From: a virus
Reading direction: 5' to 3' (one strand)
Length of the DNA stretch: 64,000 bases
Virus record (IMG/VR): IMGVR_UViG_3300020125_000051
Span: 1 to 64,000 of that record
Shown here: piece after piece, positions 1 through 18,903 of the stretch
Layout of the letters: each line of letters begins with the position of its first letter
Numbering within the stretch: position 1 is the first letter of the stretch
Made by a program: the position numbers and the translations under genes
Notes under the pieces: model-generated
Databases searched by the model: none
The model's input: the letters and a program-made list of their open reading frames with translations, nothing else
Told to the model about the DNA's origin: nothing

Positions 1-751
1 CTAACGGCATTATTTTCCTCTCACACTCTTTTAATTTAAAGCTACTTACGAGGTTTACGAGCGCACCATGGTCGTTTTGCATAACTGAATATTGCGGATA
101 CCAATTGAACTTCTATGTCTCCGTTAAGAGATTTTACTCCAATTGGAATTCGCTGATTAGTCATTATAAGCAACCATACGTACCTAGTCTTCATCCGGTT
201 CAGTGGTAAGTATCCATGGTCCAAATTGGACACTCCAACCATAGGAGCTTCTAGAAATACCAAATCCCCAAATGCCTTTATACGTTCTATATGTTCTAAT
301 CTTGATCATAGAAAGGTTGCCCCATCCATTCATTGCCGGCCGCATCTATGTGCGTCTTACCTCTGTGATCCATGTCTAGAACACAGTGGTTACCTTCAAG
401 CCTAGGATGTGGCATTCCACACTTTTCTACTTCTCTTTCGCCGAAGTAGTCAAAGAAATCATCTAGTAGTGGTCTGCTGTCCATTTTTCACCTTTCCATG
501 GTATTCTGGGCACGTTCGTTTGTGCTTGATAATACCATCTTTATCTGCTTTTTCGTAACAAATAATACATCTCATGAAATCTCCAATTTCGATCTAATGA
601 GCATTTCCATGAAATAGAACCAGCGCAGCATAAGTATAATCACTGTGCCTAAAGCTTCCATATAAAGTAATGCTAGTACCATGTTATTTTGTCTCCTATT
701 TTAGTTGTGCAACACCACAGATGTCTCTAGTACATCTATGATGCAATACAA

Positions 752-1306
752 CTAACTAGCCTTACGTTGCTCCAATGGTGGCCAAATTGCACCAGGATGG
801 ACCGGACAGCCGGCATCATGCATAACTGAGCATGGACTACCGAAATTGTGGTCAAATCCCAATTCGTGACCAACTTCATGATTAACCACCATGATTGTCC
901 AATCAATTCCTTGCGCCATTTTATTTTTGTTTATGTTTACATAGCGTCCGTCATAAGTGGCGCACGAAACACGGTCATTTTCTGCTTCTGTGGGATATGG
1001 TTTACCACATAGCTCAGCAACATTAGTTTCATTAATTTCTCGAACAATAAAATCTGGACTAGTACCCGGCTTAGCTTGATGAATTCCAGCCCATGACCTA
1101 TCATCGTTCAAAATACAATAAACTTGATCTTCAAAATCAGAAGGACCGAGCGCAATATAACTCAGTCCCCAATTGTTTTTATTAGTACCAGGGTGTGTTT
1201 TACTACATGCAGAATTCTCCGCAATCACTGGTGCGGCTACTGTTTTCATAGGACCACAGGCAGTAAGTAGAAAAAGCACACAACCTAGTAAAATTCTAAG
1301 TTTCAT
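752..1306 (-). CDS. Lipoprotein zinc metallopeptidase (metzincin/matrixin, DUF3152-like)
   Basis: Lipobox LLTAC, HEVGHELGFDH zinc motif, Met-turn SVMH. Confidence 0.8.
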   Translation of the reverse strand: MKLRILLGCVLFLLTACGPMKTVAAPVIAENSACSKTHPGTNKNNWGLSYIALGPSDFEDQVYCILNDDRSWAGIHQAKPGTSPDFIVREINETNVAELCGKPYPTEAENDRVSCATYDGRYVNINKNKMAQGIDWTIMVVNHEVGHELGFDHNFGSPCSVMHDAGCPVHPGAIWPPLEQRKAS

Positions 1307-1524
1307 TCCAAAACTTTTCCAATTCTACTGGATCAATGGCAAGCTTCACCATTAAATCATGTTTCAAAGTAGCACGCCTAATCTCAATTTCATCTTCAAA
1401 ATTTAGCTTAGCGCGCCTTATGTACAATCGTTGGATGTCCTTAATGTCAATTTTCACTTTGGTTTCCTTAATATAGTTAATTGTACAACACAGTACTCAG
1501 TTACCTGAGTACCATGCAATGCAA

Positions 1525-2232
1525 TTAACTACCAATGGATTTGCGAGTTGTTCCACCTACGCGAGTCTGACCGATGTCAGCGTTTCTACCAGCAGTAGAA
1601 CCAGCCGCGTAAGCGCCAGCATGAGTAGCATAACTCTGACCAATTTTACTTGTTCTCGGGTATGCCTCGCGGAACATGTTACGTACCGCAACAGACTTCT
1701 CCATTAGTACAATATCCATCCCGCTGGATTCAGTCCGTACTTCATTCTGAGCGCGCGTGTACGCATCACGTACCCGCTGTGAAACAGTAGCCGCATAACC
1801 AGCAATCCAGGAGTGATTAAACGTCTTGCCGTGCACTCCCTTTGGCTTTACTGCACTAGCTAGCCCGTTGTTCATCTGAATGATCAACGAACCATAGAGC
1901 ATAAATACTCTCTCCTGATCATTCTCGAATCCGAATACACGAACGCGAGTGTGATCATCGATAACAATACTTTCACAACCAAAAGCCTTACCAATGTGGT
2001 AAAGAATTTTAGCCTTAGCCAATGCATAGGGTGCTGGAATCCGATAGGACAGATCCACCAACTTATAAGTTGGCTTTGCTTGTCCAGCTTCTAGCATGGC
2101 TTCTTCGATGCCATGCTTAGCCATCAGGAACGTAATCTTATCTACGATAGCGTTACGCTCATCTAGCGAAGTTGCCGGATCCTCTGCCTTAGCCATCAGC
2201 TTAAGGATAATATCTTTCCAATTCTTTTCCAT
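1525..2232 (-). CDS. DUF2786-domain protein
   Basis: N-terminal ILKLMAKAEDP...LMAKHGI pattern and C-terminal AYAAGSTAGRNADIG. Confidence 0.7.
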   Translation of the reverse strand: MEKNWKDIILKLMAKAEDPATSLDERNAIVDKITFLMAKHGIEEAMLEAGQAKPTYKLVDLSYRIPAPYALAKAKILYHIGKAFGCESIVIDDHTRVRVFGFENDQERVFMLYGSLIIQMNNGLASAVKPKGVHGKTFNHSWIAGYAATVSQRVRDAYTRAQNEVRTESSGMDIVLMEKSVAVRNMFREAYPRTSKIGQSYATHAGAYAAGSTAGRNADIGQTRVGGTTRKSIGS

Positions 2233-2310
2233 TTTTATCCTTTGTTAGTATTTTATCCATTTTTAGTAGTGCAACACCACGCTGGTTTTCACCAGCATGA
2301 TGCAACGCTA

Positions 2311-2757
2311 CTAAATCTCGATCTCTATAATGCCTTCTAGCGCATCTTCAGCATCATTTAGTGCTTTTTTGCGGTCGATCAATTCCTCACCCAAATCTGG
2401 GTTTGCAATGACCCAGCGCACATGAGCCTCAAACTTATCAAAGTCGCTAGTCACACAATAGAAAATACTCTGAGCTTGTTCTTCAGTCAAGCCAAGAGTT
2501 GCCATTGCTGCATCTTCGAAAGAATATGCGTCACTGCCGTCAGGCATTAGTGGCCTATAACCACCATGAGCACGATCATTCACTTTGATTCGATTAGTAA
2601 GAAACTGGGCAGTACCAGCAAAGCAAAACGTTGACTTGCAAAGATCAACATTACCATCATTCCCATATTCTGGGATTACAAACAAGTTTTGATCCCACTG
2701 GTTACGATGTGCACGAATCCAGTCAAGCGTCTGCTCTACCAATTCCAAATTTACCAT
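2311..2757 (-). CDS. Hypothetical phage protein
   Basis: ORF with AAGGA RBS; WDQ...CKSTFCFAG motif. Confidence 0.65.
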   Translation of the reverse strand: MVNLELVEQTLDWIRAHRNQWDQNLFVIPEYGNDGNVDLCKSTFCFAGTAQFLTNRIKVNDRAHGGYRPLMPDGSDAYSFEDAAMATLGLTEEQAQSIFYCVTSDFDKFEAHVRWVIANPDLGEELIDRKKALNDAEDALEGIIEIEI

Positions 2758-2845
2758 TACTTATCCTTTGTTAGTTTTATTCCATTCCAATTTAATCGTG
2801 CAACACACTGTCTGTGGCAAATCCCACAGGCAGCATGCAACGCGA

Positions 2846-3037
2846 CTAACCTGATACCTTCGCGTTAATTGCAGTATTCACCAATTCTTCAACTTCATCT
2901 TTTGGAAGATTCAGTCTTGTCATTAGGTCTTCAATCATGTTATCATGCCATGTCCAGACCATAATGTTGAAGTGGCGAACCTCAGTTTCTACAATGTTGT
3001 CAATTTCTTCTGGTGTTAGTTGTTTCTTTGTTGCCAT
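2846..3037 (-). CDS. Hypothetical protein
   Basis: GAGG RBS; stop codon lies in a family-1 hairpin. Confidence 0.6.
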   Translation of the reverse strand: MATKKQLTPEEIDNIVETEVRHFNIMVWTWHDNMIEDLMTRLNLPKDEVEELVNTAINAKVSG

Positions 3038-3112
3038 TTTACCTCTTTTTTGTTATGAAAACACATAATTCCATAGCAACTGCAAAAAGAAGTATTCCTG
3101 CAATTGTCCAAA

Positions 3113-3370
3113 TTATTCCCATTTTGCTTTGTTCTGAGAAATATGTGTTCCACGAGATTTAAGCATCATTTCCAAGTTATCTACTCGGATCTGTGCCTGC
3201 TCCCATTCACGATCACGTCTAACGTCTTCATATTCCATCGCGTCGCCACCAGTAATGCATTTCGTGCAATACTTAGGTGGTCGACCACGTCGAGACGGAA
3301 TCATGAAGATTTCATTACATGCATTGCAGAATAAGCTCATTAGCTTTTCTGGAACTTCAACTGTTGTCAT
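3113..3370 (-). CDS. Small zinc-ribbon protein
   Basis: CNAC...RRGRPPKYCTKC. Confidence 0.6.
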   Translation of the reverse strand: MTTVEVPEKLMSLFCNACNEIFMIPSRRGRPPKYCTKCITGGDAMEYEDVRRDREWEQAQIRVDNLEMMLKSRGTHISQNKAKWE

Positions 3371-4771
3371 TTTTGTCCTTTTGTTATAGTTGATAGTTCA
3401 ACACCACAGTAGTGCGAGACTACTATGATGCAAAGCTATCAATCCAGCGTTACACCAGTAATTCTAGATTTTAGTGTTCTTATTACTTTTTTAACTTGTG
3501 GCATCAAGCATCCCAAGATGGTTCATTGTTAACTTTTGAACAACGCTCTACGAAACCCTGAAAACCTAGTTCTACCCAATCATGCTCTTCTAATGGAAGA
3601 CCACAAACCTCACACACTCTAGAGTTTACTAGGTAGTACTTAATAAACTCTTGATCTATGAACAATAGACCATTTAGCTTTTTCTTCTGTATTCCTACTC
3701 CTACGGTTGCCATTAGTGCAAGCCTCGCATTTGTGAGGTACCGCAGTCGTGACAGACTCGCAGCATAACAGGTGCATTATCCTGCCGATGGTCAAACTCA
3801 GTGGCTTGTGGCACGCCAACCGTTACGGTGCGCCGATGCCAGCGTGACCAACGATGACCTAGACAAATTCCAAATATTCTCATTTTCTGTGTCCTTTTTG
3901 TCTAGAAATTTCTGCAAATTTCCGTTTTAAGTTAGATGTGCATATCGTCACGCATCGGTGGATGTGTAACAATAAACTCCGCTAACTTCTACATACATGG
4001 TACATCTTTTTTAATCTGGGTGCAAGGGGTACCACACTACCGGGTTATTTATTTCGTTGCCCAGCGTGGCGTACAGCCCGGCTAGCTGACCCGTCCAGGT
4101 CGGCTAGCTCGGCTGCGCGTCAAGATCAAATTACCTGAAAATCTGTACATTTCCAGTCATTAGGTAAGTTATTGTTATCATTGTTAAGTGAGAGCATTCT
4201 ATCCAATTCCTTGAATTTAATGGCAATCAGGTACATAGTTTTCATAAACTCACCTTCCGCCAAAGTCTGCTCCATTACACCCAGAAAGGTCCGGATTTCT
4301 TGGAGTAGTTGCTCCGTCGGTTGTTCATTTGTTCCATCCATATTTTCATTTCCTTTTCCATTAAAATGTGTGCGTTATACAGATCTTGAATCGTGCCACG
4401 AGCAGAAGCACCACAGGAGCAGGTCAATACGGAAATCGCCCGCCAAAGACCTACTTTGTGATACATTACTTGATGTGGCAAACCGGCAATTAGCCAATTA
4501 CTTGGCAATTGCAAGTTATGTGGTTGTGGTACATTCAATTATTCTCCCTATTCAAGTTTCTATTAGGTGAATAACACCACGCTGGCACTTGTCCAGCATG
4601 ATGCAAAACACCTACATTTTCTTATCCTTTTCAATTTCTCGCAGACAATTCAAGCAAGTAACTTCTTCAAGATTCTGAGAATAACTCTTAGGTCGGTACC
4701 TATTCCAGCCGTGCAGAGACTTCCCACAGGCAGTAATCTGATTCAACCCAAAAGATATATCGTAGTGTGTT

Positions 4772-5158
4772 TTAGATTTGGTTGCCATCTTCATCACTTC
4801 GCTTTAGAACGTCTTCTTTGATAGGAATACCTGCTGCTTCAGCAGCACTACGTCGATGATAACCTACTTCATAATTATCATCTTCCAACCTAACGATTCT
4901 AGTACCAGGAATCTGGTACTTTACCTTAGGTGGTTGCACGCTTTCTACTGTGATGCTCTCACCAAAGTTATGGTCTTCTATCATACTTACTTCGTCCGTG
5001 AAAATTTCCAATTTTTCTTCATAATCACGGTTACGCTCGAATTCGGCTGCTTCCTGTGGGGTTTTGCAACCCGGGTAAGTTTTCGAATTAAATGGTACAC
5101 GATGCTCAACCGTAACTGTCTGACGAATTACAATAACATACTCGTTTTCAGTAGTCAT
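4772..5158 (-). CDS. Hypothetical protein
   Basis: ORF overlapping its neighbours in the leftward operon. Confidence 0.55.
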   Translation of the reverse strand: MTTENEYVIVIRQTVTVEHRVPFNSKTYPGCKTPQEAAEFERNRDYEEKLEIFTDEVSMIEDHNFGESITVESVQPPKVKYQIPGTRIVRLEDDNYEVGYHRRSAAEAAGIPIKEDVLKRSDEDGNQI

Positions 5159-5660
5159 CGCTCTCGCTCTCTCGGTCGTCGCTCCATATAATATAGTTAT
5201 ATGGAAGGACTAGCGCACGCCAGTTAAAAGGATAATCTATATATGTGGTAGACAACGAGGCCCACCAAATTAGATTGGTAGTTACGTAAGCAACCACAAA
5301 AGTAGCAAAAAGTATGGCAAAAATAATACCAAGCATTTACTTACCTTTCAAATTGACCAAAATTTTCAATTAGTTGTGCAACACAATACTCGTCTGAAAA
5401 AGACGAGTATCATGCAACGCAACTAAATTTAATTCTTACTGTTGTCGTCGGCTCTTTGACAGAAACACCACAGGATCAGCCTTGCACTTGCCGGACTGAT
5501 TAGCTACAGCCCGTGCATATGCCTCATCCTGCAACTTGCGTCGATGATCCCGCATTGCCCGTTTTCCCTGTGGTCCGCTAAATACACTCATATTTTCTCT
5601 TTTCTGGTTCCGACTCAATTTAAAAGTGTCAATTTTTGAGGACTTTATTTGTCAACACAA

Positions 5661-5702: not shown

Positions 5703-5709
5703 CATAAAG

Positions 5710-5838: not shown

Positions 5839-5987
5839 TAGAATGGCAGTTGATTTCGGACAATCTGCCAATGTCCTATGTTTTTGTTGCTTTTACCGAA
5901 TTGTCCATATTATTCCTTACCTTTCGGGTTGGATGGACATAGCACGGTATGTCCCTTTCGGGACATACCGCACTAAATCAACCCAAC

Positions 5988-6755
5988 TTACTCGTTGTCG
6001 TCTTCATTGTCCGCTTCGACCGGCTTGCCGGACTTCTTAGCCTTAGCTGCCTTTTCAGCTTCCTTGGCTGCCATGTCCGCATTGAACCGATCCGTTGCTT
6101 CCTGAATAGTCGTCGAAACCTGATCAACGTCTACGCTCTGCTCCTTAAGGAATCCCTGGTACTTCTCGATCAGCTTAGTAGTCTGTTCCTTACGACCAGT
6201 CCATAGCGCAAGCCGGGAACTAGTGTAAAGATCCTTGTACACCGCTGCGCCGAGAAGCGACAGGTTATCCTCTGCGGTGCGCGAGCTAGCGCGCTGGGCA
6301 CCGGTACCACGAGTAGACAAGCGCTCCTTACGGTTAGTCCACCATTCGGTAGCCTCATCACGCTTGATGTAAACTCGCGGTTCAGCATCATCCGGACCCT
6401 TCACAAGAATGTGCGGGATCCGCTCACGCTGAGCCTTGACAGTCTGGTAAACAGACTGCGGAACGACATAGTCATTCGCGTCAAGGTCCAGACCAGCGGT
6501 GATCTTAGCCTTCATTAGGGCCTGAGTCATGTGTGCAGCGAATTCAGTAACCGACATGGCGCCGTCCGGAACCTCTGCAACAGTCTCCACAGGAGCATCA
6601 ACAGTAGCGTCGCCGCTTCCGTCGGTTGCTGAATCCTGCGAATCACCACTAGTAGCTTCGGTGACGTTTTCGGTAGAAGTGTCGTCGGTTGCGGTAGAAG
6701 TGCCCGCAGTCTCGATACCCGCGAAAATGTCAACGTCAGTGTTACTCTGGGTCAT
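5988..6755 (-). CDS. Hypothetical protein with acidic N-terminus and charged C-terminus
   Basis: 255-aa ORF, GAGG RBS, more GC-rich than its neighbours, own promoter candidate. Confidence 0.75.
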   Translation of the reverse strand: MTQSNTDVDIFAGIETAGTSTATDDTSTENVTEATSGDSQDSATDGSGDATVDAPVETVAEVPDGAMSVTEFAAHMTQALMKAKITAGLDLDANDYVVPQSVYQTVKAQRERIPHILVKGPDDAEPRVYIKRDEATEWWTNRKERLSTRGTGAQRASSRTAEDNLSLLGAAVYKDLYTSSRLALWTGRKEQTTKLIEKYQGFLKEQSVDVDQVSTTIQEATDRFNADMAAKEAEKAAKAKKSGKPVEADNEDDNE

Positions 6756-6840
6756 TTTGTTGCCTCTCTTGTTTTGTGTGGATCTTGTTTTTTCTTTGGA
6801 TCTTGAGCAGAGTGATCGTCCAGTTTTGAATGACCTGCTC

Positions 6841-6878
6841 TCTGCCTTACATGGTCCATTCTACCATGTAAGGCAGGC
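6841..6878 (-). promoter_or_regulatory. Extended -10 promoter (TGGTAGAAT) inside an inverted repeat
   Basis: CTGCCTTACATGG...CCATGTAAGGCAG palindrome overlapping TGnTAGAAT. Confidence 0.5.
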
Positions 6879-6928
6879 AACATGCCAGTCTATTTTAGCT
6901 GTTTCCCAAGATTTTTTAGGTTAGAAGA

Positions 6929-7840
6929 CTAGAACAGGTGTCCTAGTCGGGTTAGGTGGTCTATGACCTTGATGCCCGGTTTAGCCGGAAAAATGATGTG
7001 TTTGGGTCGCCCGATGTTGCCATCACGGTAGGCACCCAAATTAATCAAACCATACTTAAATAAATAGTTTAGGTCGGTTCGGGCTTTTTGTCTCAAAAGT
7101 GCAGTTGGTACAAATCCTTTCAATACCTGCATTCCTGGTACATGTGAGACATTTAGCATTACAATGTTGAAGTCTTTATCCGGTTCTGCTACTTTTGCCC
7201 GAAAATCACTTAAACGTTGGGCACGCGGCACTAATGCATCTTGTTCACGTTGTGCTTTTTGTTCATTTTGTTCCTTTTGTTCCTTTTCTTGTGCTGTGTC
7301 ACTTGTGTCATATATTGGTGCTTTACCTTCTCTTACGCGGTTTTCGGCTGCATTTATGGCTTTTAGAATTACTTGCAGCATTTTGAGTGATCTGATTGGA
7401 ATAGTTGCTTTTACGAAGAAATCATCGGCGTCGTCCCAAGTGTTAGGATTGTATGCGATATCGTGCCCTGCGCGATCATTTATCTCTCTTATTACGTCTA
7501 TGGCCTGTTCTGCCTTGATTAGGCCATTGTTTACTAATTGTCCGGTTACTGTGCATAACGGTGGATCATAGTATTTGCTGCCGGCTAGGCAGCTTCTGTC
7601 GTGCATTTCCATTAAGTCTTGATTGTTCGAAAGTATCTTTTCGTAACTTACCTGTGGATCTGTGATGTTTAGTGTGTTGTCGTCCGATTTGGCCTGTTGG
7701 GCTAGTTTTAGGTCATAATAGCGTGATTCTAGCCATACGGCTAGCTCTAGGCTCATGTCGCCTAAGTGGTCCGCATATTCTCCGCCTTGTCCTATCTTAT
7801 GGGCGAAAAAGATGGTATCTCCGAGATTTACGATAGCCAT
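6929..7840 (-). CDS. Hypothetical protein (303 aa)
   Basis: Long ORF with AAGG RBS; no family recognised. Confidence 0.7.
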   Translation of the reverse strand: MAIVNLGDTIFFAHKIGQGGEYADHLGDMSLELAVWLESRYYDLKLAQQAKSDDNTLNITDPQVSYEKILSNNQDLMEMHDRSCLAGSKYYDPPLCTVTGQLVNNGLIKAEQAIDVIREINDRAGHDIAYNPNTWDDADDFFVKATIPIRSLKMLQVILKAINAAENRVREGKAPIYDTSDTAQEKEQKEQNEQKAQREQDALVPRAQRLSDFRAKVAEPDKDFNIVMLNVSHVPGMQVLKGFVPTALLRQKARTDLNYLFKYGLINLGAYRDGNIGRPKHIIFPAKPGIKVIDHLTRLGHLF

Positions 7841-8724
7841 TCCGTTACCTTACTCGTGATCTTATTGATAGACATGGGTCGATAGTACATATGTGCTATA
7901 AATCCAGGACAGTCAATATGATTACTGAGCGTTAGTGTGGATCTTGAAAATTGTTACGGAGAGTATTGGTAATTAACGCGCACATACGTGCTAAAAAAAT
8001 CTTTTGACGTGTCAACCGATGGCGCTTAAGGCTCTCGAATCGGACAGAAAACATCCGATCCCGATGCCGTAACCGACCCTAAGTGTACATCTGAAACGCG
8101 CCGACACGGTCACGGTTAGGTTGCAGTGCAGTTAAATAAAATATGAAATATGTTTTGTGATTTAGTGGTGGGTGGTTGGGGTATGAACAAATGCTTTTTT
8201 ACATATAGGGTCGATTAAGGTTTGCAAAAAGATTGCTTTAAAAACAAATGAAATATTTCAGAAGAAACAAATATCCGGTTTGGAAGGATTATTCGGGAAT
8301 TTCTTGCCAGGCATTCCGGGCCTTTTGACAACCTTAGAAAATAGGTATGATGTTCGTTGGTATATGAAAATTGGCATCGTATACGAGAGCAGATTGTGTG
8401 AAATGGGTTGATTGGGTGGGTTTGTCCAGGAAAATCGGACATGTCCGTTTTGGTAGGGTGTCGCGTTTGGAATGGGTAGGTGGTAAGGTCCTTCATTAGG
8501 TTCTTTACGGCAACTTGCCCAACTAATGCCCATCGTGCCCCACTATGCCCCCATATGTCCGTTTTGAAAAAATCTTGCGGGCTGTTTGTCCGACTGGATG
8601 GGAATTGTCCAATTTTTGAGGAGTTGGGTTGGTATGCCCAAATATGTCCGAATTATGACGACCATTCAAGATCATCTATGATCGATGATCTTGAATGATC
8701 GTTACAATTCGGCTTTGTGAGGTT

Positions 8725-9006
8725 CTAGGATGCTTTGTCCTGATTGTCCGATTTGCTGAGTTCACCCCATATGAAGTTATATCCAGCCAATCGGGTGGAT
8801 GTGGACGGACCTGTCCTAGAAAGTCGGGCTTCGGTAGCTTCGTCCGCTATCTGGCAGTCTGTACCTTTCCGGTAGATAAGTCCGACTGCGTTGGGTTTGC
8901 GAATTCCACCCTGCTTTGGGCCGAATGGGTGCTTTGTCCGTTTTCCCTTCTTTTTGGTGGTATAAGGCATTGGAGGTAGATTGGGTGAATTGTCTTCAAT
9001 GTCCAT
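8725..9006 (-). CDS. Basic hypothetical protein
   Basis: GGAG RBS, 93-aa ORF. Confidence 0.5.
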   Translation of the reverse strand: MDIEDNSPNLPPMPYTTKKKGKRTKHPFGPKQGGIRKPNAVGLIYRKGTDCQIADEATEARLSRTGPSTSTRLAGYNFIWGELSKSDNQDKAS

Positions 9007-9204
9007 TTCGTCTCCGTTGTCTTAGTTGATCTTGGTAGCTTGCGCGGCTCACCTGTGGTGGGTGGCTCACGCGGCCCGCTGTACGGGCGTCTGAGCGCTG
9101 TTGATCATGTTGCGGGTACCCTGACCAGGGTCCGCTTAGTTGATCATGTCCTAGACGCTCACAGCCAAGATCCGTACATGCGTGCGGATCATGACTGAAA
9201 CCGA

Positions 9205-9510
9205 CTAGCTGTAAAATCCTGAAATTCGGGTCATTAACCTGATTTTACTTTGATGTCCAGATGTGCTAGAACTGTACTTAACATCTGGAATGACCCATTC
9301 TGTCCCATTATACCATGCAATAGGCGTTTGGTACGAGTAGATCGTATAGACCACATTTGTCGCCTTTAGCTGATCTACTAGGAATGATGGCAAACGTCCG
9401 TATTGATACGGTTTGCACTGAGTGCCCCGTACATTACCAATATCGAACGCTTTGAAGTGATCGATACCAGCTTGCATGGTTTTGAGGGTAGTTCTGCCGT
9501 AAAGTGCCAT
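9205..9510 (-). CDS. Conserved-type phage early protein
   Basis: AGGAG RBS; YSYQTPIAW...YSSSTSGHQS motif. Confidence 0.7.
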   Translation of the reverse strand: MALYGRTTLKTMQAGIDHFKAFDIGNVRGTQCKPYQYGRLPSFLVDQLKATNVVYTIYSYQTPIAWYNGTEWVIPDVKYSSSTSGHQSKIRLMTRISGFYS

Positions 9511-9584
9511 TTTGTACTCCTAAATGTTGGTTTAGGTGGATTTAGTGCAAAACGGAGCAGATGTCCGTTTTGCACTAAATCCAT

Positions 9585-9803
9585 CTAACGTGGCGAGTCG
9601 TACGTATCGAACGACCAACCCCATTTGTCCATTTGTTCGTACTTTGCGTGTGTCCAGTTGATTATGGTAGTAACGTCATCGCTTGTGTCAATTAGGAAAA
9701 AATGGCCGGTTGGTGTTACAATGGCAATTTTGTTCATTTCCGTCTTGACTAGAACGATTGTCCCGTTGTCGGTGGTTGCTACCGCTTCATACCTGTTTGT
9801 CAC
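9585..9803 (-). CDS. Hypothetical protein
   Basis: AGGAG RBS, GTG start, bounded by family-2 hairpins. Confidence 0.65.
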   Translation of the reverse strand: MTNRYEAVATTDNGTIVLVKTEMNKIAIVTPTGHFFLIDTSDDVTTIINWTHAKYEQMDKWGWSFDTYDSPR

Positions 9804-9877
9804 CTTAGTCTCCTAAAGTAGTGAATTAGGTGGACATGCGGCAAAACGGCGCAATGTCCGTTTTGCCTGATCTCTAC

Positions 9878-10102
9878 CTAATTTCCATATGAAGGCATTT
9901 CGCCCCACGTGTCCTGAAGTGAAGGAGAATCGTAGTGAAAGTCGTCTATGTCCTCAAAGTACGATTCGTCCTCTGAGTCCCAATCGCCTTGAATGGTGTA
10001 TTTGTCTTCATAGTCCGATTCGAGAAAATCGTCCTCGTTCATGAAGTATGCTACTCCTATCATGGTTTGATCTGAAATGTCCGTTTCATCCGGTAGTAAC
10101 AT
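9878..10102 (-). CDS. Very acidic small protein
   Basis: Asp/Glu-rich with aromatic residues; AAGGA RBS. Confidence 0.65.
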   Translation of the reverse strand: MLLPDETDISDQTMIGVAYFMNEDDFLESDYEDKYTIQGDWDSEDESYFEDIDDFHYDSPSLQDTWGEMPSYGN

Positions 10103-10187
10103 TTTTATTCCTTTTGTTTGGATTTAGGTGGACATGGAGTGATTGGGATGATAACATCCCAATCAAACCAAATCTACCTAATCGTCA

Positions 10188-10328
10188 TCAATGAGACGGT
10201 TTGTCTTTTTCGTACAGCTTTGTGCTGTCAAAGCACAATTCGTCCTTTTCGTGCTGTCCATCACACATGGGACATGTGAGGCTATTGTACCTTTCTTCCT
10301 CATAATCCCGTTCCTGGTCATTGTCCAC
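10188..10328 (-). CDS. Small CxxC protein (46 aa, not in ORF track)
   Basis: GTG start; MDNDQERDYEEERYNSLTCPMCDGQHEKDELC... Confidence 0.5.
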   Translation of the reverse strand: MDNDQERDYEEERYNSLTCPMCDGQHEKDELCFDSTKLYEKDKPSH

Positions 10329-10582
10329 TGTTTGTCCCCTTCATTACGATCCTGCCCTTCCCTCCCCTTATGACACAATCTAGGTACAATTGCGCCAAAT
10401 CGTCCGATTGAACGGCTTTTGCCCAATTTTTGAGGAATCTATTAATCCTCTTGATTTGAGCAGGTCTGAGGGTAATGCGGTAGTTTCGCATGACTTGTCC
10501 TTATTTGGTTGGGGTTATCCACTTTTAGGTGGATATGAACCAGGATGTCCCTTTTGAGACATCCTGGAACATAAGCACCTAA

Positions 10583-11152
10583 TTAGGCGACATCTGCCAT
10601 TTCGTCCACGATTGCCGGCCCTATGAAGGTTGGTACGGGTTTGGTGCTAGTTGTCCGCTTTGCGGGAACTTTCGGCTTTGTGCTTTTTGCCGCTACTGTG
10701 GCCTTTGCCGGAGTTGTCCGTTTTGCCGGTGCTGTCTGCTTTGTGGTGATCTTGGCGGTTGTCACCTTTTCGATCAATATGCCCGCTGCGAGCAACATTG
10801 GGGCATCTGTGATAAACACGTAGATTACCGCAGTTGTCCAATGTTGTCCGTTTCGTGACACAAAGTCTACAATGTGCCAACCTGACCCATACATGGCGAA
10901 TGCGCAGATTAGACCAAATCCGCCGTATATGACCGTTTTCATCCACTTAGTCCTAGGCGAAAAGTAACTAATCAGATGAGACGATAGAAAAGCCACAACT
11001 GGTGGCAAAGCCGACACAACGATCGAATCCCGGTAAAGTGCACCAGAACGGACATTTGCATAAAGTGAAAATGTCCCACAAATGGCCAATGTCGCGGTTG
11101 CCCACAACTTCCCCTTTTGTGCCTTCGTGCGTGGAATGGACGGAATGCCCAT
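10583..11152 (-). CDS. DUF2637/SpdA-like membrane protein with Lys/Thr/Ala-rich tail
   Basis: Four hydrophobic segments, SLYANV...SALPPV motif, PAKR repeats. Confidence 0.6.
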   Translation of the reverse strand: MGIPSIPRTKAQKGKLWATATLAICGTFSLYANVRSGALYRDSIVVSALPPVVAFLSSHLISYFSPRTKWMKTVIYGGFGLICAFAMYGSGWHIVDFVSRNGQHWTTAVIYVFITDAPMLLAAGILIEKVTTAKITTKQTAPAKRTTPAKATVAAKSTKPKVPAKRTTSTKPVPTFIGPAIVDEMADVA

Positions 11153-11411
11153 TTTAGGCCCCTTTCGCTAGGGAAAGCACGGAATAGGCACAATGTCCTA
11201 TTCCGCACTTTTTCTAGCGAAAGTGCCAAGTATGTACCGATAGAGATGCATATGCCCCTAATTGTGGGCCTGCCGGCAATTGTCCGTTCTATCCCACTAG
11301 CCGGGCATATGCACCTTTAGCGGTACATACCTCCTATCTGTCACTGTTTAGGTCTCAATGTCCGATTCGCCCGCTTCTACCACTTCTGGAATGTTCCGGG
11401 CGACTATGTCC

Positions 11412-11454
11412 ATTATAGCATACCCGATTCGGACATATAGTGCGAATCGGGTAT
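11412..11454 (-). promoter_or_regulatory. Extended -10 promoter (TGCTATAAT) overlapping an inverted repeat
   Basis: Minus strand TATGCTATAAT; arms ATACCCGATTCG/CGAATCGGGTAT. Confidence 0.55.
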
Positions 11455-11536
11455 TTTAAACTGTCGGGTAGCTGACAGTCGACAATATCCGCATATGTCA
11501 GGTTATGTGAAGGTATGACCGATTTTGTCCGATTTG

Positions 11537-11830
11537 TTAGTCTTGCACTACAAAGTACTCAATTTCGCCGATTTCATCGTGAAAGGTCATATCTTCCCAT
11601 TGGTCCGGATCTTCCGAATAGGCCGGATCGTCCTTTATGACCGAAATGTCGTGCAGAACCTGCACAAAATGGTCATAGCAGGACGAATCCGCATCTACTG
11701 CCATCTTCTCGACATTGTCGTACAATTCGGCTACAGCCGCCACAAAAGTGGACGCACTGCCCAAATGCACGTCAATCGGGCCATCCTCGCAAAGGTAATC
11801 AGAATACCCGAAACTCCACGAATCCGACAT
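11537..11830 (-). CDS. Cassette A: acidic hypothetical protein
   Basis: AAGGAG RBS; inside IR pair. Confidence 0.75.
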   Translation of the reverse strand: MSDSWSFGYSDYLCEDGPIDVHLGSASTFVAAVAELYDNVEKMAVDADSSCYDHFVQVLHDISVIKDDPAYSEDPDQWEDMTFHDEIGEIEYFVVQD

Positions 11831-11914
11831 TTCGTCTCCTTTGTATCATTTCGGTCATACCCTCACAAAACCTGACATATCCGGATTTAGACTGCCTTGT
11901 CTCTTTTGTCTTAT

Positions 11915-12187
11915 TTAGTCGAGTTGCCCGATTTTGCAAAGATCGCGCACTCTGTACGGTCCTGTCCCATCTGGATCGATTTCGTCATGCTTTGGGCAGA
12001 TTCGCCACCATTCGACGGTAATGTCCTTTTCGCTCCAATTTGGTGGATTGAGGTTTCCCTCCACATCCGTCACCTTTGTCACGATTCCGACGCATTGTCC
12101 GTCTTCGCACTTTTCGCACCCATCGTCGTATTCGTGGTCTTCGCACGGTGCGTCCCACTTTACGATGGTATCGACCTTAATGTCCAT
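11915..12187 (-). CDS. Cassette B: Cys-containing small protein, paralog of C
   Basis: Start moved to MDIKVD after AGGAG. Confidence 0.75.
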   Translation of the reverse strand: MDIKVDTIVKWDAPCEDHEYDDGCEKCEDGQCVGIVTKVTDVEGNLNPPNWSEKDITVEWWRICPKHDEIDPDGTGPYRVRDLCKIGQLD

Positions 12188-12284
12188 TTTGTCTCCTAAT
12201 GTCCGATTTGGGAGACAAGGCAGTTTAGACCCGGACATGTCTGTCATATCCGGATTTAGGGTGGCATGTCCCTTTTAGGTTAGT

Positions 12285-12557
12285 TTAGTAACATTGTCCG
12301 ATGTCCCACAAAGAGTCCGAACTGTACGTTCCGACCGTTGTGAGGCTTTCCAGGTGATATGGGCAGATTTGCACCCATCGCACCTTTACGTCAAATTTGG
12401 GCTCATTGTCGATAAAGCCCAGCATTGTCAGACTTAGCACTATTCCGATGCATTGGTCCGTTTCGTCCTCTAAAAAGCAGGTTCTTCCTGTTTCGTGCAT
12501 TCCGCTACTTTTAGGAGGATTGTACGGTTGGACCAGGGTTCCTACGTTTAGTCCCAT
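12285..12557 (-). CDS. Cassette C: small protein, paralog of B
   Basis: Start moved to MGLNVG after AAGGAG. Confidence 0.75.
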   Translation of the reverse strand: MGLNVGTLVQPYNPPKSSGMHETGRTCFLEDETDQCIGIVLSLTMLGFIDNEPKFDVKVRWVQICPYHLESLTTVGTYSSDSLWDIGQCY

Positions 12558-12648
12558 TTTGTCTCCTTTTGCGAGACATGCCACCTTAGATCCGGATATG
12601 TCCGAATGTAACCGTTTTAGCCCCACATGTCTGGTTTTGCCTGATTTG

Positions 12649-12873
12649 TTACATCTTGCGAGTAATGACCGGCTCGTCCTCTATGATCTCTACGTCCGTT
12701 TCAGCCATTACGTCCTCGATGCCCTGATTGTCGCGAATGTCCTCAGTGAGGTCTTCGTCCGAAATTTCCTTTTCGGGAAATCCGTCCCATCCGTCCATGT
12801 AGTCGTTAATTTCCATTTCGTACCGGAACGTGATGGTTCGCTCGATAACAACCTTATCGCCAGGCTTGTACAT
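12649..12873 (-). CDS. Cassette D: acidic protein, paralog of H
   Basis: AAGGAG RBS; inside IR pair. Confidence 0.75.
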   Translation of the reverse strand: MYKPGDKVVIERTITFRYEMEINDYMDGWDGFPEKEISDEDLTEDIRDNQGIEDVMAETDVEIIEDEPVITRKM

Positions 12874-12999
12874 GTTTGTCTCCTTTGTCCAATTTGGCCA
12901 GACATGTGGAGTTAGAACGGTTACATCCGGATATGAGCGCTTACGTCCCTTACTCTCTGGAATATCCAGATTTATGGAGCTATGTCTGGGTTGTCCGTT

Positions 13000-13215
13000 T
13001 TAGTCCTTTGCGACGTATCCGCGCCGAACGCGCAGAATGCTAGTTAATGCCCAGAATGTAGTGGTTTGGTCGTCTTCTGACATTTCGTCCGATTTGACGA
13101 TTTCGTCCCATACGTCCTGATACGTCCACGTTGACAGCATTCGTGACTGAATGTCCTGAAATACTGCCCTTTGTACCTTTGGGGTGGCTCGCCATAGTTC
13201 GGGTAGTTTGTCCAT
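13000..13215 (-). CDS. Cassette E: hypothetical protein
   Basis: Start moved to MDKLPE after AGGAG. Confidence 0.7.
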   Translation of the reverse strand: MDKLPELWRATPKVQRAVFQDIQSRMLSTWTYQDVWDEIVKSDEMSEDDQTTTFWALTSILRVRRGYVAKD

Positions 13216-13464
13216 TTTTACCCACTCCTGTGGTGTTTGCCCAGACATAGCCCCATAGACCCGGATATGCCCCCTAGATCCCTCCCCTCCCCATTTGTCT
13301 GAATTAGGAGAAAAATCCAGAAATGTCCGACTCATTTTGAAATGTCCAATTTTTGAGGAAGCTTACGCTTACGCTCTCCTATATCGGGTTTTATCCCGAT
13401 ATATCCGGATATGGACTAGTTTGTCCGGATTTAAGTGGATATGTCCGTTTTGTCTAACTATGTA

Positions 13465-13629
13465 CTATTTGCGGTACCATGCCCCATTATGGTAGTCACA
13501 GTCCGAAATGTACGAATCTTCCGTTATGGCATGACATACCGGATTTGTCGCTATTGCGACGTCTCGTCCGATTAGGACGGCTATGACCACTAAAAGCACA
13601 AATATCATGCTTAGCAACCATTTGACCAT
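13465..13629 (-). CDS. Cassette F: 54-aa single-pass membrane/secreted protein (not in ORF track)
   Basis: MVKWLLSMIFVLLVVIAVLIGRDVAIATNPVCHAITEDSYISDCDYHNGAWYRK; AAGGAG RBS. Confidence 0.7.
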   Translation of the reverse strand: MVKWLLSMIFVLLVVIAVLIGRDVAIATNPVCHAITEDSYISDCDYHNGAWYRK

Positions 13630-13746
13630 TTTTGCTCCTTATGTCCGATTTGTCGGTTTGTGCACCGCGTGGGTAAAACGGACATATCCACATAAACCCG
13701 GACAAACTATGACTTACTACCCTTTGTCGGACATGTCCGATTTGGA

Positions 13747-14007
13747 CTAGCTAACCCGAATTGCGCCGCTATGGGTGATTTCTACCGTTGCGTACCATTT
13801 GCGGTTTGTGTACGGGTTTGGCCCGGTTACGGAGTATTTGACCCCTTTCTCCATTATGTCCAAAGTGCCAGGAATTGTGGCGTTAAACTCCGATGTGCCG
13901 TAAAAATACACGTTTGTCGGATTTGCCGCAATTGCGTCCTTTAGAGCCTTTTTGGTCGGTATGTCCGATTTGTCGGCATTGTACTTTGCGCCCACATTTA
14001 CGTACAT
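13747..14007 (-). CDS. Cassette G: hypothetical phage protein
   Basis: AAGGAG RBS; PTKKALK...VTGPNPYTNRKWYA. Confidence 0.75.
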   Translation of the reverse strand: MYVNVGAKYNADKSDIPTKKALKDAIAANPTNVYFYGTSEFNATIPGTLDIMEKGVKYSVTGPNPYTNRKWYATVEITHSGAIRVS

Positions 14008-14111
14008 TTGTACTCCTTTGTCCGATTTGTGTAGATTTGTCGGACATGCCCGATAAGGGGTAGTAAGTCTGACATATGCTAGTATAGGAGTGTATGTCCG
14101 GTTTGCCTGAT

Positions 14112-14384
14112 TTAGGCTATTTCAACCGAGATGACCGTATCGTCCGCTATGTCCATTGTGTCGGTATAGCCCGAACTGACCGAAATGTCGTTGTTACGGC
14201 ATTCGTCCAGAATGAGATTTTTGACCGAAATGGACTCTTTGTCCGTTCCGTCCAAAATCTCCGCAATGTCCACTTCGTACGCTATTGTCACGATTCGGGT
14301 GATTGTTACCGTTTGTCCGGCTTTGAGCATTACGTCCAAATTGGCCTTATTGCCCTCTTTGTACTCAATGTCCCAAATGTCCAT
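14112..14384 (-). CDS. Cassette H: acidic protein, paralog of D
   Basis: Start moved to MDIWDI after AAGGAGG. Confidence 0.75.
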   Translation of the reverse strand: MDIWDIEYKEGNKANLDVMLKAGQTVTITRIVTIAYEVDIAEILDGTDKESISVKNLILDECRNNDISVSSGYTDTMDIADDTVISVEIA

Positions 14385-14495
14385 TTTGTCCTCCTTCGTC
14401 CGATTTTGGATAAATGGACCGGACATACACCCTTATACTAGCATATGTCATGGTATATCCGGATTTAGGAGCCTATGTCCGTTTTGCACGATCTG

Positions 14496-14801
14496 TCAGA
14501 TAAGCGTTAATTCAGTGGCTCTGACCGTTTTGCCCTCTATGGGCATTAGGTCACCTTCGTCATCTATGCGGCTTATGCGGCATAGGGTCGTTATGACCGA
14601 TTTGCCGTCATTGTCCGCTTCTTCCTGGTATGTCACAGTTGAGAGGATTACGTACTCTTCCTCCCGGTATGTGACGTATGCCCCGATTTGTGGGATTATG
14701 ACTACCAATGTGCTCATTTGCGAAGGTTGGTAGTTTTCGTCCCATTCGCCGGGAATGTCCAGATTTCCGATGATTTTCTGGTTTTCGTCCTGAATGTACA
14801 C
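14496..14801 (-). CDS. Cassette I: hypothetical protein
   Basis: GTG start after AAGGAGG. Confidence 0.7.
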   Translation of the reverse strand: MYIQDENQKIIGNLDIPGEWDENYQPSQMSTLVVIIPQIGAYVTYREEEYVILSTVTYQEEADNDGKSVITTLCRISRIDDEGDLMPIEGKTVRATELTLI

Positions 14802-14896
14802 TACATCCTCCTTTGTCCGATTTTGGCCGGACATAGGCTCTTAGATCCGGATATACCCAGGAAAATCCAGGTTTAGGGTGGCTTGTCCGTTTTGCC

Positions 14897-15127
14897 CTAG
14901 TTAGCTAGGACTCGGGGGATTCGCCCCATCCATGCCGCAAAACCACGAAATGTCATGACATGAGTGGGTTCGTCCGCTATGTCCAGCATGTCCGTTGTCT
15001 GCTCGTTTGGGAAGAATGTCTGGTCTGCCTCGTTTGTCTCGTTTACCACGAAATGTCCGATTTGTGGCACTCCGCACACATTGTCATAGTATAGCACCTG
15101 ATGTACGGAATAACGTGGCTTGTCCAT
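14897..15127 (-). CDS. Cassette J: hypothetical protein
   Basis: Start moved to MDKPRY after AAGGAG. Confidence 0.7.
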   Translation of the reverse strand: MDKPRYSVHQVLYYDNVCGVPQIGHFVVNETNEADQTFFPNEQTTDMLDIADEPTHVMTFRGFAAWMGRIPRVLAN

Positions 15128-15235
15128 TTTTGTCTCCTTTGTCCGATTTTTCCGAAATGTCGGACAAGCCACCCTAAACCTGGATTTTCCTGATTTAGCT
15201 CTTATGTCTCCTTTGTCCGGCATGTCCGTTTTACC

Positions 15236-15397
15236 CTACTTAGTCGCGTAAATCCTGATTTGACAGGATTCGCACCACATGACCGTTTCGCCGAAAATAG
15301 CCCATTCGAGAGCTTCTTCCGGTTTGTCCGGTTTTGCCGGGACCGTCCGATGTGAGCAGTTTGTGCAGTAATCGTACGATTCGGAATACCTTGGCAT
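15236..15397 (-). CDS. Cassette K: small zinc-ribbon protein
   Basis: CTNC...CESC; start MPRYSE after AAGGAGG. Confidence 0.7.
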   Translation of the reverse strand: MPRYSESYDYCTNCSHRTVPAKPDKPEEALEWAIFGETVMWCESCQIRIYATK

Positions 15398-16582
15398 AGT
15401 ATGCCCTCCTTTGTCTCGTATGTCCGATTTTTCGGACATGCCGGATAAGGGAGACATAAGCGCTTCTGTCCGGTTTTCGTCACTTTTGAGTTATTAAGTA
15501 CCGATTTGCACCGCTTCGCCTGTATCCCACCATTTTCCCGACTTGTCGGGATTGTCTAGGATGTCGGTTTCCGCCCGGTCTGGCTCCCTCTAGCCTATCA
15601 TGTCCAGGTCTGTACCGAAATGTCCGGATTTATGCCCATATAATACCCCAAAAAATTCCGACATTTCCGGACATGTCGGAAATGCCCGAAAAAAATGTCG
15701 GCCTTTTCGTGTTAAATCCCCATAAATCGGACAAATCGGACATATCGGGATATAATACCGGTACAAATCGGGGCAAATCGGGCACCCCTTAAAATATGAC
15801 AAATCCGGACATTTCACCATTTAGTGGTAGACTCGCGGCGAAACGGGCGGACATTTCGGGGCATTCGCGACAAAACGGACAAATTGAATCCTCATATATC
15901 CGGATATAGTAGGGCAAATTCGGAGAGTCTAGACTATTCGGACATTTGCCACATATCGGAATGATCAACAGTCCGAAATGTCCTTTTGTAATTAATGATA
16001 TTTCGTGATATGTCCGATATGTACCAAATGTCTGAATGACAAGAATCCGACCCATGCGCATACGTGCATGTTGATCAAGACAAATTGGGCATATGGTGCA
16101 TAACGGACACCCTGGGAGGGTCCTGACATATACCCACAAAACGGACATACCACACATATACACACATATGTGTACATATGTGGATAAAACGGACACGGGT
16201 GGGGTGATTTATCCACATATGATATGGTATGTACACATATGATACGTTATGTTTCATATGTCCGTTTTGTCCTAGTCTGCCCTAGTTTGTCATGATTTGG
16301 AACCCGGACAAAGCCACCCAAAAGCATACAAAACGGACAAAGTTAACTATATTATTTTAAATCATCATAAAATGGACATTCCGGTAGGTCCAACGTAGAT
16401 CGGTGAAGGTTTTTAGTGTTAGTAAATTTACATGGTAATAATCAAGAAATCAAGATATTAGTCCTGAAAATTTTACGAGGATTATCAGAGGTGTTTGTAA
16501 GTTGACAAGATCAAAAAGTTTCTCTTGTCCTCGCTATGGCTAAGGCGTACTCTGAGTTTGGAGTCTATTTGGAGGTGAACGC

Positions 16583-16930
16583 ATGGCGAGCAAAGACCCA
16601 GCAGACCGACCGCCGGACAATTCTGGCCCTTGGGATCCGGATACGGCTCTGAGAAATTTAAATGCTGAACTTGCACTAGGTATGGTTAGTTCTCCTGAGG
16701 AAATGGCTAGAAAGCTATTTAAGGAGAACTTACCAGTTGCCGTCATGGCAATTTGTCATATGGCAACATATTCAGATACCGAAATGATGCGCTTCCAAGC
16801 TGCTAAGTTTGTAGTTGAGCGGACTATGGGTCCGGCCGAGCGCATAATTGCCACAGATAGTCGGCACGCTTGGGATGACATCTACGATAGTGTTACCCAT
16901 GAAGCTGAGAATTATCTTCGGAAGCAATAA
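16583..16930 (+). CDS. Putative terminase small subunit
   Basis: First rightward gene, GGAGG RBS, helical sequence, upstream of TerL; assignment is positional. Confidence 0.45.
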   Translation: MASKDPADRPPDNSGPWDPDTALRNLNAELALGMVSSPEEMARKLFKENLPVAVMAICHMATYSDTEMMRFQAAKFVVERTMGPAERIIATDSRHAWDDIYDSVTHEAENYLRKQ

Positions 16931-17124
16931 TGCATGAAATAGTAAAAAGCGCGGTAACGCCTAAAAGAATAACTACTGAGGAAATAGAACTAGCCAAGAC
17001 ATACTACGATGAACGCTTGACGACCGAAGATAAGCGTTGGGTTAAAGAGCACTTAGAGTTGGCTGGTAAAGCTGCACCACCCGTTGATATTTCTTGGATT
17101 ACACTTACCTGTGGGGGGTGAAAT

Positions 17125-17628
17125 ATGTCAGCACGACGTGGACTTAGGGGCGATAACGTAATTTACCGCCGTTCTAATGGTGAAAGCATGGCTGTTATTC
17201 TGACTGGTGGTCAGGGTGACCCGCCAGCCGCACCAGCAGGTGTGCAGTCTGGATCTGGTGGAACATTAGCTGCTGCTACATATGTGTACAAGAACACATA
17301 TGTTAAAGATGGTGTTGAGAGCCAGCTTAGCGCAGCTAGTAATAACAACGTGACATCTGGCTCGACTTCATCTGTGGCGGTTACGGTAGCAACCGTTGCT
17401 GGTGCGACATCTTACAAGATTTATGGTCGTACTGGTGGTACCTTCCTGTTACTGAATACTATTACTGCCCCAACTGTTCTGTATACAGACACAGGTGCGG
17501 ACACTCCGTCTGGCGCGGCGCCAACGGCTGATTTTAATGCAAGTTTTAGAACACCGTACGCCGGACATGCGTTAACTACTGGTGTTTTGCCAGGCATTGG
17601 TGGTAACCAGTACCAGAAGACAAACTAG
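17125..17628 (+). CDS. FN3/Ig-like virion accessory protein
   Basis: TYVYKNTYV...GATSYKIYGRT...YTDTG, similar to the insert in the major tail protein. Confidence 0.6.
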   Translation: MSARRGLRGDNVIYRRSNGESMAVILTGGQGDPPAAPAGVQSGSGGTLAAATYVYKNTYVKDGVESQLSAASNNNVTSGSTSSVAVTVATVAGATSYKIYGRTGGTFLLLNTITAPTVLYTDTGADTPSGAAPTADFNASFRTPYAGHALTTGVLPGIGGNQYQKTN

Positions 17629-17636
17629 GAGACAAG

Positions 17637-17777
17637 ATGGCACCTAAGAAGAAGGCAGTACCAGCCAAAAAGGCGATGCCTATGAAGGCTGGTAAAGGTA
17701 AAGGTGATGGCACTGACATGGCCGACAGAATGGCAGCACTGCGCGCGAAGCGTGGTAATGGAAAGGCTGGTAAGTAA
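17637..17777 (+). CDS. Lys/Ala-rich microprotein 1 (46 aa)
   Basis: AGGAG RBS; MAPKKKAVPAKKAMPMKAGKGK... Confidence 0.7.
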   Translation: MAPKKKAVPAKKAMPMKAGKGKGDGTDMADRMAALRAKRGNGKAGK

Positions 17778-17917: not shown

Positions 17918-17918
17918 A

Positions 17919-18887: not shown

Positions 18888-18903
18888 GAAAGTAGCGACT
18901 AAG

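Follow-up and report, generated by a model that had tools for sequence, protein, structure and literature searches.

We have analysed a DNA stretch of 64,000 nucleotides (referred to here as the window), which is the first 64 kb of the 81,007-bp IMG/VR phage record IMGVR_UViG_3300020125_000051, a record with direct terminal repeats that is found in soil metagenomes. In this window, eleven small genes are arranged as an array of cassettes, and each of them is enclosed by its own long-range RNA helix. At the centre of these helices, we have found a two-fold symmetric element, made of two base pairs between a C.A and an A.C mismatch, which is conserved among related phages. Judging from the sequences, we see about an even chance that this element (the register) is the target site of an RNase III-type dimeric endonuclease of double-stranded RNA (dsRNA), most likely the enzyme of the host.

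Gene-enclosing stems in the cassette array

The eleven genes (53-101 aa) span 11487-15464 and are denoted as cassettes A to K. Since all of them lie on the minus strand and have a Shine-Dalgarno site, usually within a leader of the form AAAUCGGACAAAGGAG-N5-AUG, the minus strand is taken as the transcript strand. Each gene, together with its leader, lies inside its own inverted repeat of 30-37 nt, the arms of which are 204-346 nt apart. Duplexes of cognate arms reach -40 to -63 kcal/mol, compared with a mean of -20.5 kcal/mol for non-cognate pairs, and the minimum free energy fold of the 4.1-kb sense RNA contains all 11 stems (for cassette A, 29 of the 36 arm positions are paired in this fold). 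We have also considered that the two arms which meet in an intergenic region might form a local hairpin with each other, and have rejected this, since only -14 to -25 kcal/mol are reached there.

Within the array, sigma-70-like promoters and intrinsic terminators are not more frequent than in shuffled sequence, and no promoter- or terminator-like site is found between any 5' arm and its gene. This lack of excess makes it plausible that the array is transcribed as one polycistronic RNA.

Mismatches are concentrated on a central register

The preliminary description of this DNA, made from the letters of the window, had placed a 4-nt register exactly 6 nt before a WTGTC box in each left arm (ATGAC in cassette A). 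Using a script, we have located the register, spacer and box strings of all 11 cassettes at the described places on the plus strand, in the same order and with the same distance. Both outer positions of the register are C-A mismatched (A.C and C.A on the minus-strand transcript) in B, C, D, G, I and K, a single mismatch is present in A (U.U), E (A.C), F (U.U) and H (C.A), and none is present in J; the numbers of six, four and one cassettes agree with the description. Actually, 16 of the 31 non-Watson-Crick cells in the eleven stems fall on 2 of the 29 columns (binomial p = 2.9e-11), and the numbers of A.C and G.U cells are 14:0 in the register versus 0:12 elsewhere (Fisher p = 1e-7). Chance is excluded as the origin of this concentration.

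Exact-pattern scans for the same architecture have led to 12 further related contigs of uncultured phages, among which two are complete genomes (75.8 and 110 kb). The identity of TerL among the relatives is 61-86%. From the 13 contigs, a total of 76 gene-enclosing stems were collected and anchored on the AUGUC box. The arrangement C.A, two pairs, A.C is present in 39 of the 76 stems, and another 17 have one A.C mismatch, with the other outer position being a Watson-Crick pair in 13 of them and a second, non-A.C mismatch in 4. Of the register cells, 95 are A.C, 40 are Watson-Crick pairs, 13 are other mismatches and only 4 are G.U, while the other 27 helix columns hold 1923 Watson-Crick, 76 G.U, 36 other and 17 A.C. 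The difference in A.C/G.U polarity between register and rest, calculated for the first 56 stems, gives a Fisher p of 2e-29.

The helices themselves are maintained by compensation rather than by a common sequence. As had been noted for the window, the 6-bp spacer varies freely: 5.99 of its 6 positions pair in the cognate arms of the 76 stems, and this number drops to 3.05 +/- 0.13 after re-dealing arms among cassettes. Spacer and outer 12 bp together, which differ between cassettes, show 17.6 of 18 positions paired in cognate arms versus 9.6 +/- 0.3 in re-dealt ones. In addition, homologous genes in different phages have unrelated yet fully compensated arms.

Structure and covariation of the register

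Both arms have the form 5'-C-N-N-A-3' on the transcript, most often with CUAA in each of them (20 of 56 stems). The central dinucleotide covaries and the mismatches are retained, as seen in CUAA/CUAA, CUUA/CAAA, CAUA/CAUA, CCUA/CAGA and CUGA/CCAA. This indicates that the element is a two-fold symmetric structure and not a sequence word. According to the pair table, the helix has about 29 positions, from about -22 to +6 relative to the box, with 1x1 mismatches at -10 and -7 and 2 bp between them. Over the 76 stems, the dyad is central in the helix, with a median of 14 bp outward and 13 bp inward. The two half-sites are alike when read 5' to 3' from the dyad, namely CUAA-N6-AUGUCCG on the inner side and CUAA-A.C.GG-AUA on the outer side, with CUAA-N6-AUR common to both. 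The AUGUC/GACAU box, 8-12 nt from the centre, is present on the inner side only and is near-invariant (72-76 of 76 at each position).

Since G.U pairs are tolerated outside the register and a non-pair is kept at the register, in both cases on the sense RNA, the pairing pattern shows that selection acts on the helix of the sense RNA and not on DNA or an antisense RNA. If the register were read instead on the plus strand, as DNA or antisense RNA, its mismatches would become U.G/G.U wobbles; this reading was rejected, as the other 76 wobble cells wobble on the sense strand only. We have also rejected the idea that conserved UAA stop codons (within CUAA) on both arms are the object of selection, as the pairs CUUA/CAAA, CAUA/CAUA, CCUA/CAGA and CUGA/CCAA keep the mismatches without UAA.

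The word TGTCCG and its complement CGGACA are nearly confined to 5000-20000 (48 of the 55 TGTCCG and 29 of the 34 CGGACA in the 81-kb genome). Their dominant orientation flips at ~16 kb along with the gene direction, which indicates CGGACA as the word in RNA sense. All leaders contain it (AAAUCGGACAAAGGAG), as do the sequences that flank the 3' arms (CAAAACGGACAU) and the non-coding region at 15.5-16.5 kb.

The coordinates of the cassettes, and of the local hairpins treated further below, are collected in Table 1.

Table 1 Cassettes with their registers, and local hairpin families of the same leftward arm (window coordinates; mismatches as on the transcript)
Feature	Span	Strand	Arms or copies	Gene	Register and pairing partner	State of register
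Cassette A	11487..11886	-	11487-11522, 11851-11886	11537-11830 (97 aa)	11505-11508 with 11868-11865	one U.U mismatch; box ATGAC
Cassette B	11874..12241	-	11874-11903, 12212-12241	11915-12187 (90 aa)	11887-11890 with 12228-12225	A.C / A-U / U-A / C.A
Cassette C	12240..12605	-	12240-12270, 12575-12605	12285-12557 (90 aa), paralog of B	12256-12259 with 12589-12586	C-A mismatches at both positions
Cassette D	12598..12934	-	12598-12634, 12898-12934	12649-12873 (74 aa)	12617-12620 with 12915-12912	both C-A mismatches; spacer with one G.U
Cassette E	12959..13271	-	12959-12990, 13240-13271	13000-13215 (71 aa)	12972-12975 with 13258-13255	one A.C mismatch
Cassette F	13417..13709	-	13417-13451, 13675-13709	13465-13629 (54 aa)	13431-13434 with 13695-13692	one U.U mismatch
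Cassette G	13711..14069	-	13711-13740, 14040-14069	13747-14007 (86 aa)	13723-13726 with 14057-14054	both C-A mismatches; central U-A, U-A (CUUA/CAAA)
Cassette H	14070..14450	-	14070-14102, 14418-14450	14112-14384, paralog of D	14084-14087 with 14436-14433	one C.A mismatch
Cassette I	14452..14857	-	14452-14481, 14828-14857	14496-14801 (101 aa, GTG start)	14465-14468 with 14844-14841	both C-A mismatches
Cassette J	14858..15192	-	14858-14889, 15161-15192	14897-15127 (76 aa)	14873-14876 with 15177-15174	perfect 32-bp duplex, zero register mismatches
Cassette K	15197..15464	-	15197-15228, 15433-15464	15236-15397 (53 aa)	15212-15215 with 15449-15446	both C-A mismatches (CUUA/CAAA)
Hairpin family 1	701..5437	-	701-755, 1474-1531, 2255-2322, 3390-3442, 5359-5437			
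Hairpin family 2	5928..10582	-	5928-5987, 9532-9588, 9824-9883, 10124-10181, 10525-10582			

The outer ends of neighbouring stems overlap by 13 nt between A and B (11874-11886, GACAUAUCCGGAU) and by 8 nt between C and D (12598-12605), so that these neighbours cannot be fully paired simultaneously. At several cassette junctions, the sequence ATATCCGGATAT is itself a palindrome. The sole long gap in the array lies between F and E (13216-13464, 249 nt). A short palindrome (AUAUCGGGAUAAAACCCGAUAU) and two GGACAUUUC repeats are present in this gap, where an internal promoter or operator may be located.

A possible cut site of an RNase III-type enzyme

RNase III is a symmetric homodimer, the idealised substrate of which has 22 bp, a two-fold centre between the cuts, 2-nt 3' overhangs, and a distal box ~11 bp from each cut (PMC3867540, PMC6212723). 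Long dsRNA is reduced by this enzyme to products of 11-15 bp (PMC3867540), and ~90% of the double-cleavage sites in E. coli in vivo have both positions between the cuts paired (PMC6212723). The stems of the array exceed the double helix of at least about 20-22 bp, corresponding to two A-form turns, that an RNase III substrate has. In geometry, they offer the symmetric 5'-CNNA-3' on both strands with two central pairs and 13-14 bp per side, compared with a minimum of 11 bp per side in the substrate, the scissile bonds being assigned by symmetry. That is, when the dyad of the enzyme is placed on the dyad of the element, the cuts would fall between the second N and A, and the invariant U-C of AUGUC would lie 11-12 nt from the scissile bond, which is the placement of the distal box in E. 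coli (PMC3867540). The preliminary description had proposed the register as a nuclease recognition site. Its geometric part stands, as the element fits a dimeric dsRNA nuclease with a 2-nt stagger, and the recognition role is an interpretation of that fit.

We infer the following course of events. The leftward early transcript, made as a single RNA, would fold into 11 cassette-specific helices of ~29 bp, and the loop of each helix would contain one cistron together with its leader and Shine-Dalgarno site. The enzyme would cut each strand between the second N and A of CNNA and leave 2-nt 3' overhangs; in cassette I, for example, these cuts would lie between 14842/14841 and between 14466/14465. 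In this way the cistrons would be separated into individual mRNAs, and the outer parts of the helices would be set free as short duplexes. The sequence at the start of each mRNA would be pA-N6-AUGUCCG, and that at its end CGGACAU-N6'-CNN. The 5' and 3' ends of the mRNA would stay paired in a helix of ~13 bp, which should be too short for recutting and would shield the ends from end-dependent RNases, with a stabilising effect on the message. The helix left to close each gene had been expected to have roughly 11-19 bp. We have found 12-14 bp on the inner side in 58 of the 76 stems, with a range of 12-21, which matches closely.

On the other hand, several observations weigh against the register being such a cut site. 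The register is fully paired in 8 of the 76 stems, J included, and a sub-lineage (L040 and L041) is mostly without register mismatches, which means that the element is not indispensable. Mismatches at the target site can restrict or block RNase III cleavage and may let only one strand engage a catalytic site (PMC3867540), so the register mismatches might restrict cleavage rather than direct it. In addition, sequence conservation is not a feature of the distal box in E. coli substrates, in contrast to the AUGUC of these stems, which is invariant and confined to the inner side; its complement CGGACA also recurs in every leader and across the 5-20 kb domain. The AUGUC/GACAU box may therefore serve another factor. 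Finally, the phage has no match to Ribonucleas_3_3, and thus no RNase III gene of its own by this search. The same family was matched in 8 of 14 control genomes, and RNase III is widespread in bacteria.

A more far-reaching version, which we hold as possible but clearly less probable than the cut site as such, is that C.A / 2 bp / A.C may be an undescribed specificity determinant of bacterial dsRNA processing. It could be a mismatch code that places the RNase III cut, as a bacterial counterpart of the GYM motif of Dicer, or the site of an unknown dimeric nuclease, and it would punctuate the early polycistronic RNA into monocistronic mRNAs with base-paired ends.

Alternative explanations

The same mismatches could also keep the stems from being cut. 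As uncut clamps, the stems would be split by the A.C mismatches and the weak central A-U pairs from a helix of 29 bp into halves of ~13 bp, too short for RNase III, and the cistron would remain closed and insulated and escape dsRNA nucleases or sensors. The mismatch pair is exactly central in the helix, and the arms are strongly cassette-specific, as an insulator requires. Halves of 13-14 bp are also near the 11-15 bp limit products of RNase III, and mismatches have been remarked to limit cleavage (both in PMC3867540); moreover, structural elements of a substrate can uncouple binding from cleavage (PMC6212723). However, any central disruption would do for a clamp, and the symmetric 5'-CNNA-3' with exactly two covarying pairs, seen in 39 of the 76 stems, is not needed. 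Since RNase III does cut T7-type sites inside internal loops of a comparable kind (PMC3867540), and a perfect 32-bp duplex (J) coexists in the array, we regard uncut clamps as unlikely.

Somewhat less probable still, the register and AUGUC/GACAU could be the site of a protein other than RNase III, either a phage or host factor or another nuclease, through which the early messages would be regulated in their stability or translation. The invariance of AUGUC would agree with this, as would the recurrence of the sense word CGGACA in all leaders, beside all 3' arms and all over the early domain at 5-20 kb, and the two-fold symmetry suits any homodimer. No candidate has emerged among the early-arm proteins, however, as no nuclease or RNA-binding family was matched by them in Pfam and PHROGs; a PDB sequence search with three early proteins gave nothing below E = 0.07. 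Also, a factor acting on early genes has to be available as soon as infection begins, which speaks for an enzyme of the host.

It is very improbable that the arms act as DNA, i.e., that they are inverted repeats which serve inversion, transposition or a shuffling of the cassettes, the fixed mismatches belonging to the recombination site. In favour of this reading, the same arms surround unrelated genes in different phages, paralogs are found in more than one cassette, and the conserved boundary boxes could be recombination linkers. A function in DNA is strandless, however, whereas the mismatches outside the register are of a kind that permits G.U pairing on the sense strand. Moreover, the 81-kb genome has no match to a serine or tyrosine recombinase (Resolvase, Phage_integrase), and over 11300-15700 the contigs of four soil DNA runs are identical, with no variant letters, indels, or inversion or deletion joints. 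A recombination site also has no need for cassette-specific compensated spacers. A linker role of this kind has reportedly been proposed for the PeSL cassettes of T4-type phages. An invertible segment or the terminal inverted repeats of a transposon were rejected as classes as well, as neither a recombinase or transposase nor rearranged DNA forms were found.

Cassettes or payloads do move, since the same arms enclose unrelated genes and paralogs sit in different cassettes. Near-identical arms (..UAUACCCGUU-CUAA-CUCUGC-AUGUCCG) at L020:5019-5391 (G002) and on the sense strand of L045 at 2888-3244 enclose unrelated genes of two phages, and the spacer ACGCAU is common to three different genes (L020:4632, L084 and L045). 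These cases would be explained either by payloads exchanged inside fixed stems or by arms exchanged between cassettes.

Local hairpins in the same arm

Two families of local intergenic hairpins occur in the leftward arm. In four of the five copies of family 1, C.A and U.U mismatches flank two pairs, and the upper stem has 13 bp (15 bp in the last). The stems of family 2 have 25-28 bp, some of them with a sense-strand C.A, and the hairpin at 9824 shows mismatch, 2 bp, mismatch. As a U-tract is absent from both families, they look like processing or stability elements and not like terminators. The layout of mismatch, two pairs, mismatch and ~13 bp is thus common to the gene-enclosing stems and the intercistronic hairpins, which suggests that one processing activity may read both.

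Phage and genome context

The record belongs to an uncultured tailed phage, and none of the sequencing runs listed as containing it is from RNA. It has recognised genes for a Mu/P23-45-type portal, the large terminase and a tape-measure protein. Its genes for replication and metabolism include a family A DNA polymerase fused to a UDG domain, a DUF3987 primase, an SNF2 helicase and ThyX. Several genes hint at an actinobacterial host, namely DUF3152, DUF2786/DUF7168, a DUF2637-like protein, and a portal whose nearest relatives are in Arthrobacter and Gordonia phages (at most 33% identity), though the G+C content is only ~42-47%. Searching the array by blastn against 50,697 phage records gave no match. 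An exact-pattern scan for one arm in 185,579 prokaryote genomes gave no match either, hence no lead to a prophage or host. In the window, Rfam matches four tRNAs only.

Directly downstream of the array, a 189-aa protein (10583-11152) is kept in at least 8 related contigs with 42-58% identity. It lies near DUF2637 clusters in Atlas, which are mostly from Actinomycetota and phages, with scores below 0.9, and a DUF2637-like membrane protein is a lead only. Upstream, a non-coding divergence region of ~1.1 kb (15470-16560) separates the leftward early arm from the packaging genes, which point rightward. CGGACAU/AUGUCCG is frequent in this region in either orientation, and sigma-70-like candidate promoters pointing leftward are located at 16508-16481 and 16392-16364. 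In two relatives (L053:8322-10742 and L021:1-3475), the match to the large terminase gene is split into pieces that lie ~1 kb or more from each other, which suggests an intron, an intein or an inserted homing-endonuclease gene.

Implications and comparison with known systems

Provided that the register is cut, the rRNA-style processing stalk would have been adapted by this phage family for general use with mRNAs. From a single long early transcript, a dozen messages would arise, each with its own address helix and with paired ends hidden from RNases that depend on 5' or 3' ends, a design that resembles the hand-built operon insulators of synthetic biology. It would also provide a transferable cut rule for bacterial RNase III, i.e., a symmetric C.A pair around two bp with 13 bp per side. 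The question of how RNase III cuts are placed in cellular substrates has been only partly answered so far, and the 76 natural variants are a ready-made mutational series. If the stems are uncut, the data would instead describe a natural way of keeping 29 bp of dsRNA in a bacterial cell.

Among the known systems, the leader-trailer stalks of rRNA operons, processed by RNase III, likewise consist of a long-range helix that flanks the product and encloses hundreds of nucleotides or more, and a cut of both strands with a 2-nt stagger is expected there (PMC3867540). Here, in contrast, each helix encloses a small protein-coding cistron, the eleven units abut and have their own helix sequences, the centre is a symmetric C.A / 2 bp / A.C, and the ends would stay paired on the mRNA after the cut. 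We have therefore not classified the stems as rRNA-operon processing stalks, since the enclosed product is an open reading frame with a Shine-Dalgarno site and not a stable RNA.

The RNase III sites in the early mRNA of T7 (R0.3-R1.3, e.g., R1.1) share with the stems the setting of an early polycistronic phage RNA, the use of dsRNA elements, an irregularity at the cut site and about one helical turn per side, and cleavage in T7 leaves structured ends that stabilise the mRNA (PMC3867540). They are local intergenic hairpins with asymmetric internal loops and are cut once, whereas the strands here are 204-346 nt apart around a gene and the irregularity is symmetric. The stems were accordingly rejected as T7-type intercistronic hairpins, since their strands enclose a gene and adjoining arms pair poorly (-14 to -25 kcal/mol); hairpins of the T7 kind are present further down the same phage arm.

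In human Dicer, the GYM motif uses a mismatched C or A beside the scissile bond to fix the cut position (PMC10685087), which is comparable by analogy only. Dicer is a eukaryotic class 3 enzyme, and the motif lies on one strand of the pre-miRNA, where it is read together with G and Y pairs. To our knowledge, nothing comparable has been described for bacterial RNase III.

The archaeal bulge-helix-bulge, as in rRNA stems, is likewise a symmetric motif in a long-range stem, in which both strands are cut by a dimeric endonuclease. It has two 3-nt bulges with 4 bp between them, whereas the element here has two 1x1 mismatches (-10/-7) with 2 bp between, and this geometry rules out an identity of the two. 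Moreover, the stems occur with bacterial Shine-Dalgarno sites in a phage in which the RtcB and RNA ligase families have no match.

In full-text searches of the literature, we have found no description of arrays of singly stem-enclosed phage genes, nor of a symmetric C.A pair marking such stems. Overall, compared with these systems, the stems are best placed as putative processing stems of the RNase III type, which differ from the known ones in that they lie at long range around mRNAs and carry a defined mismatch register.

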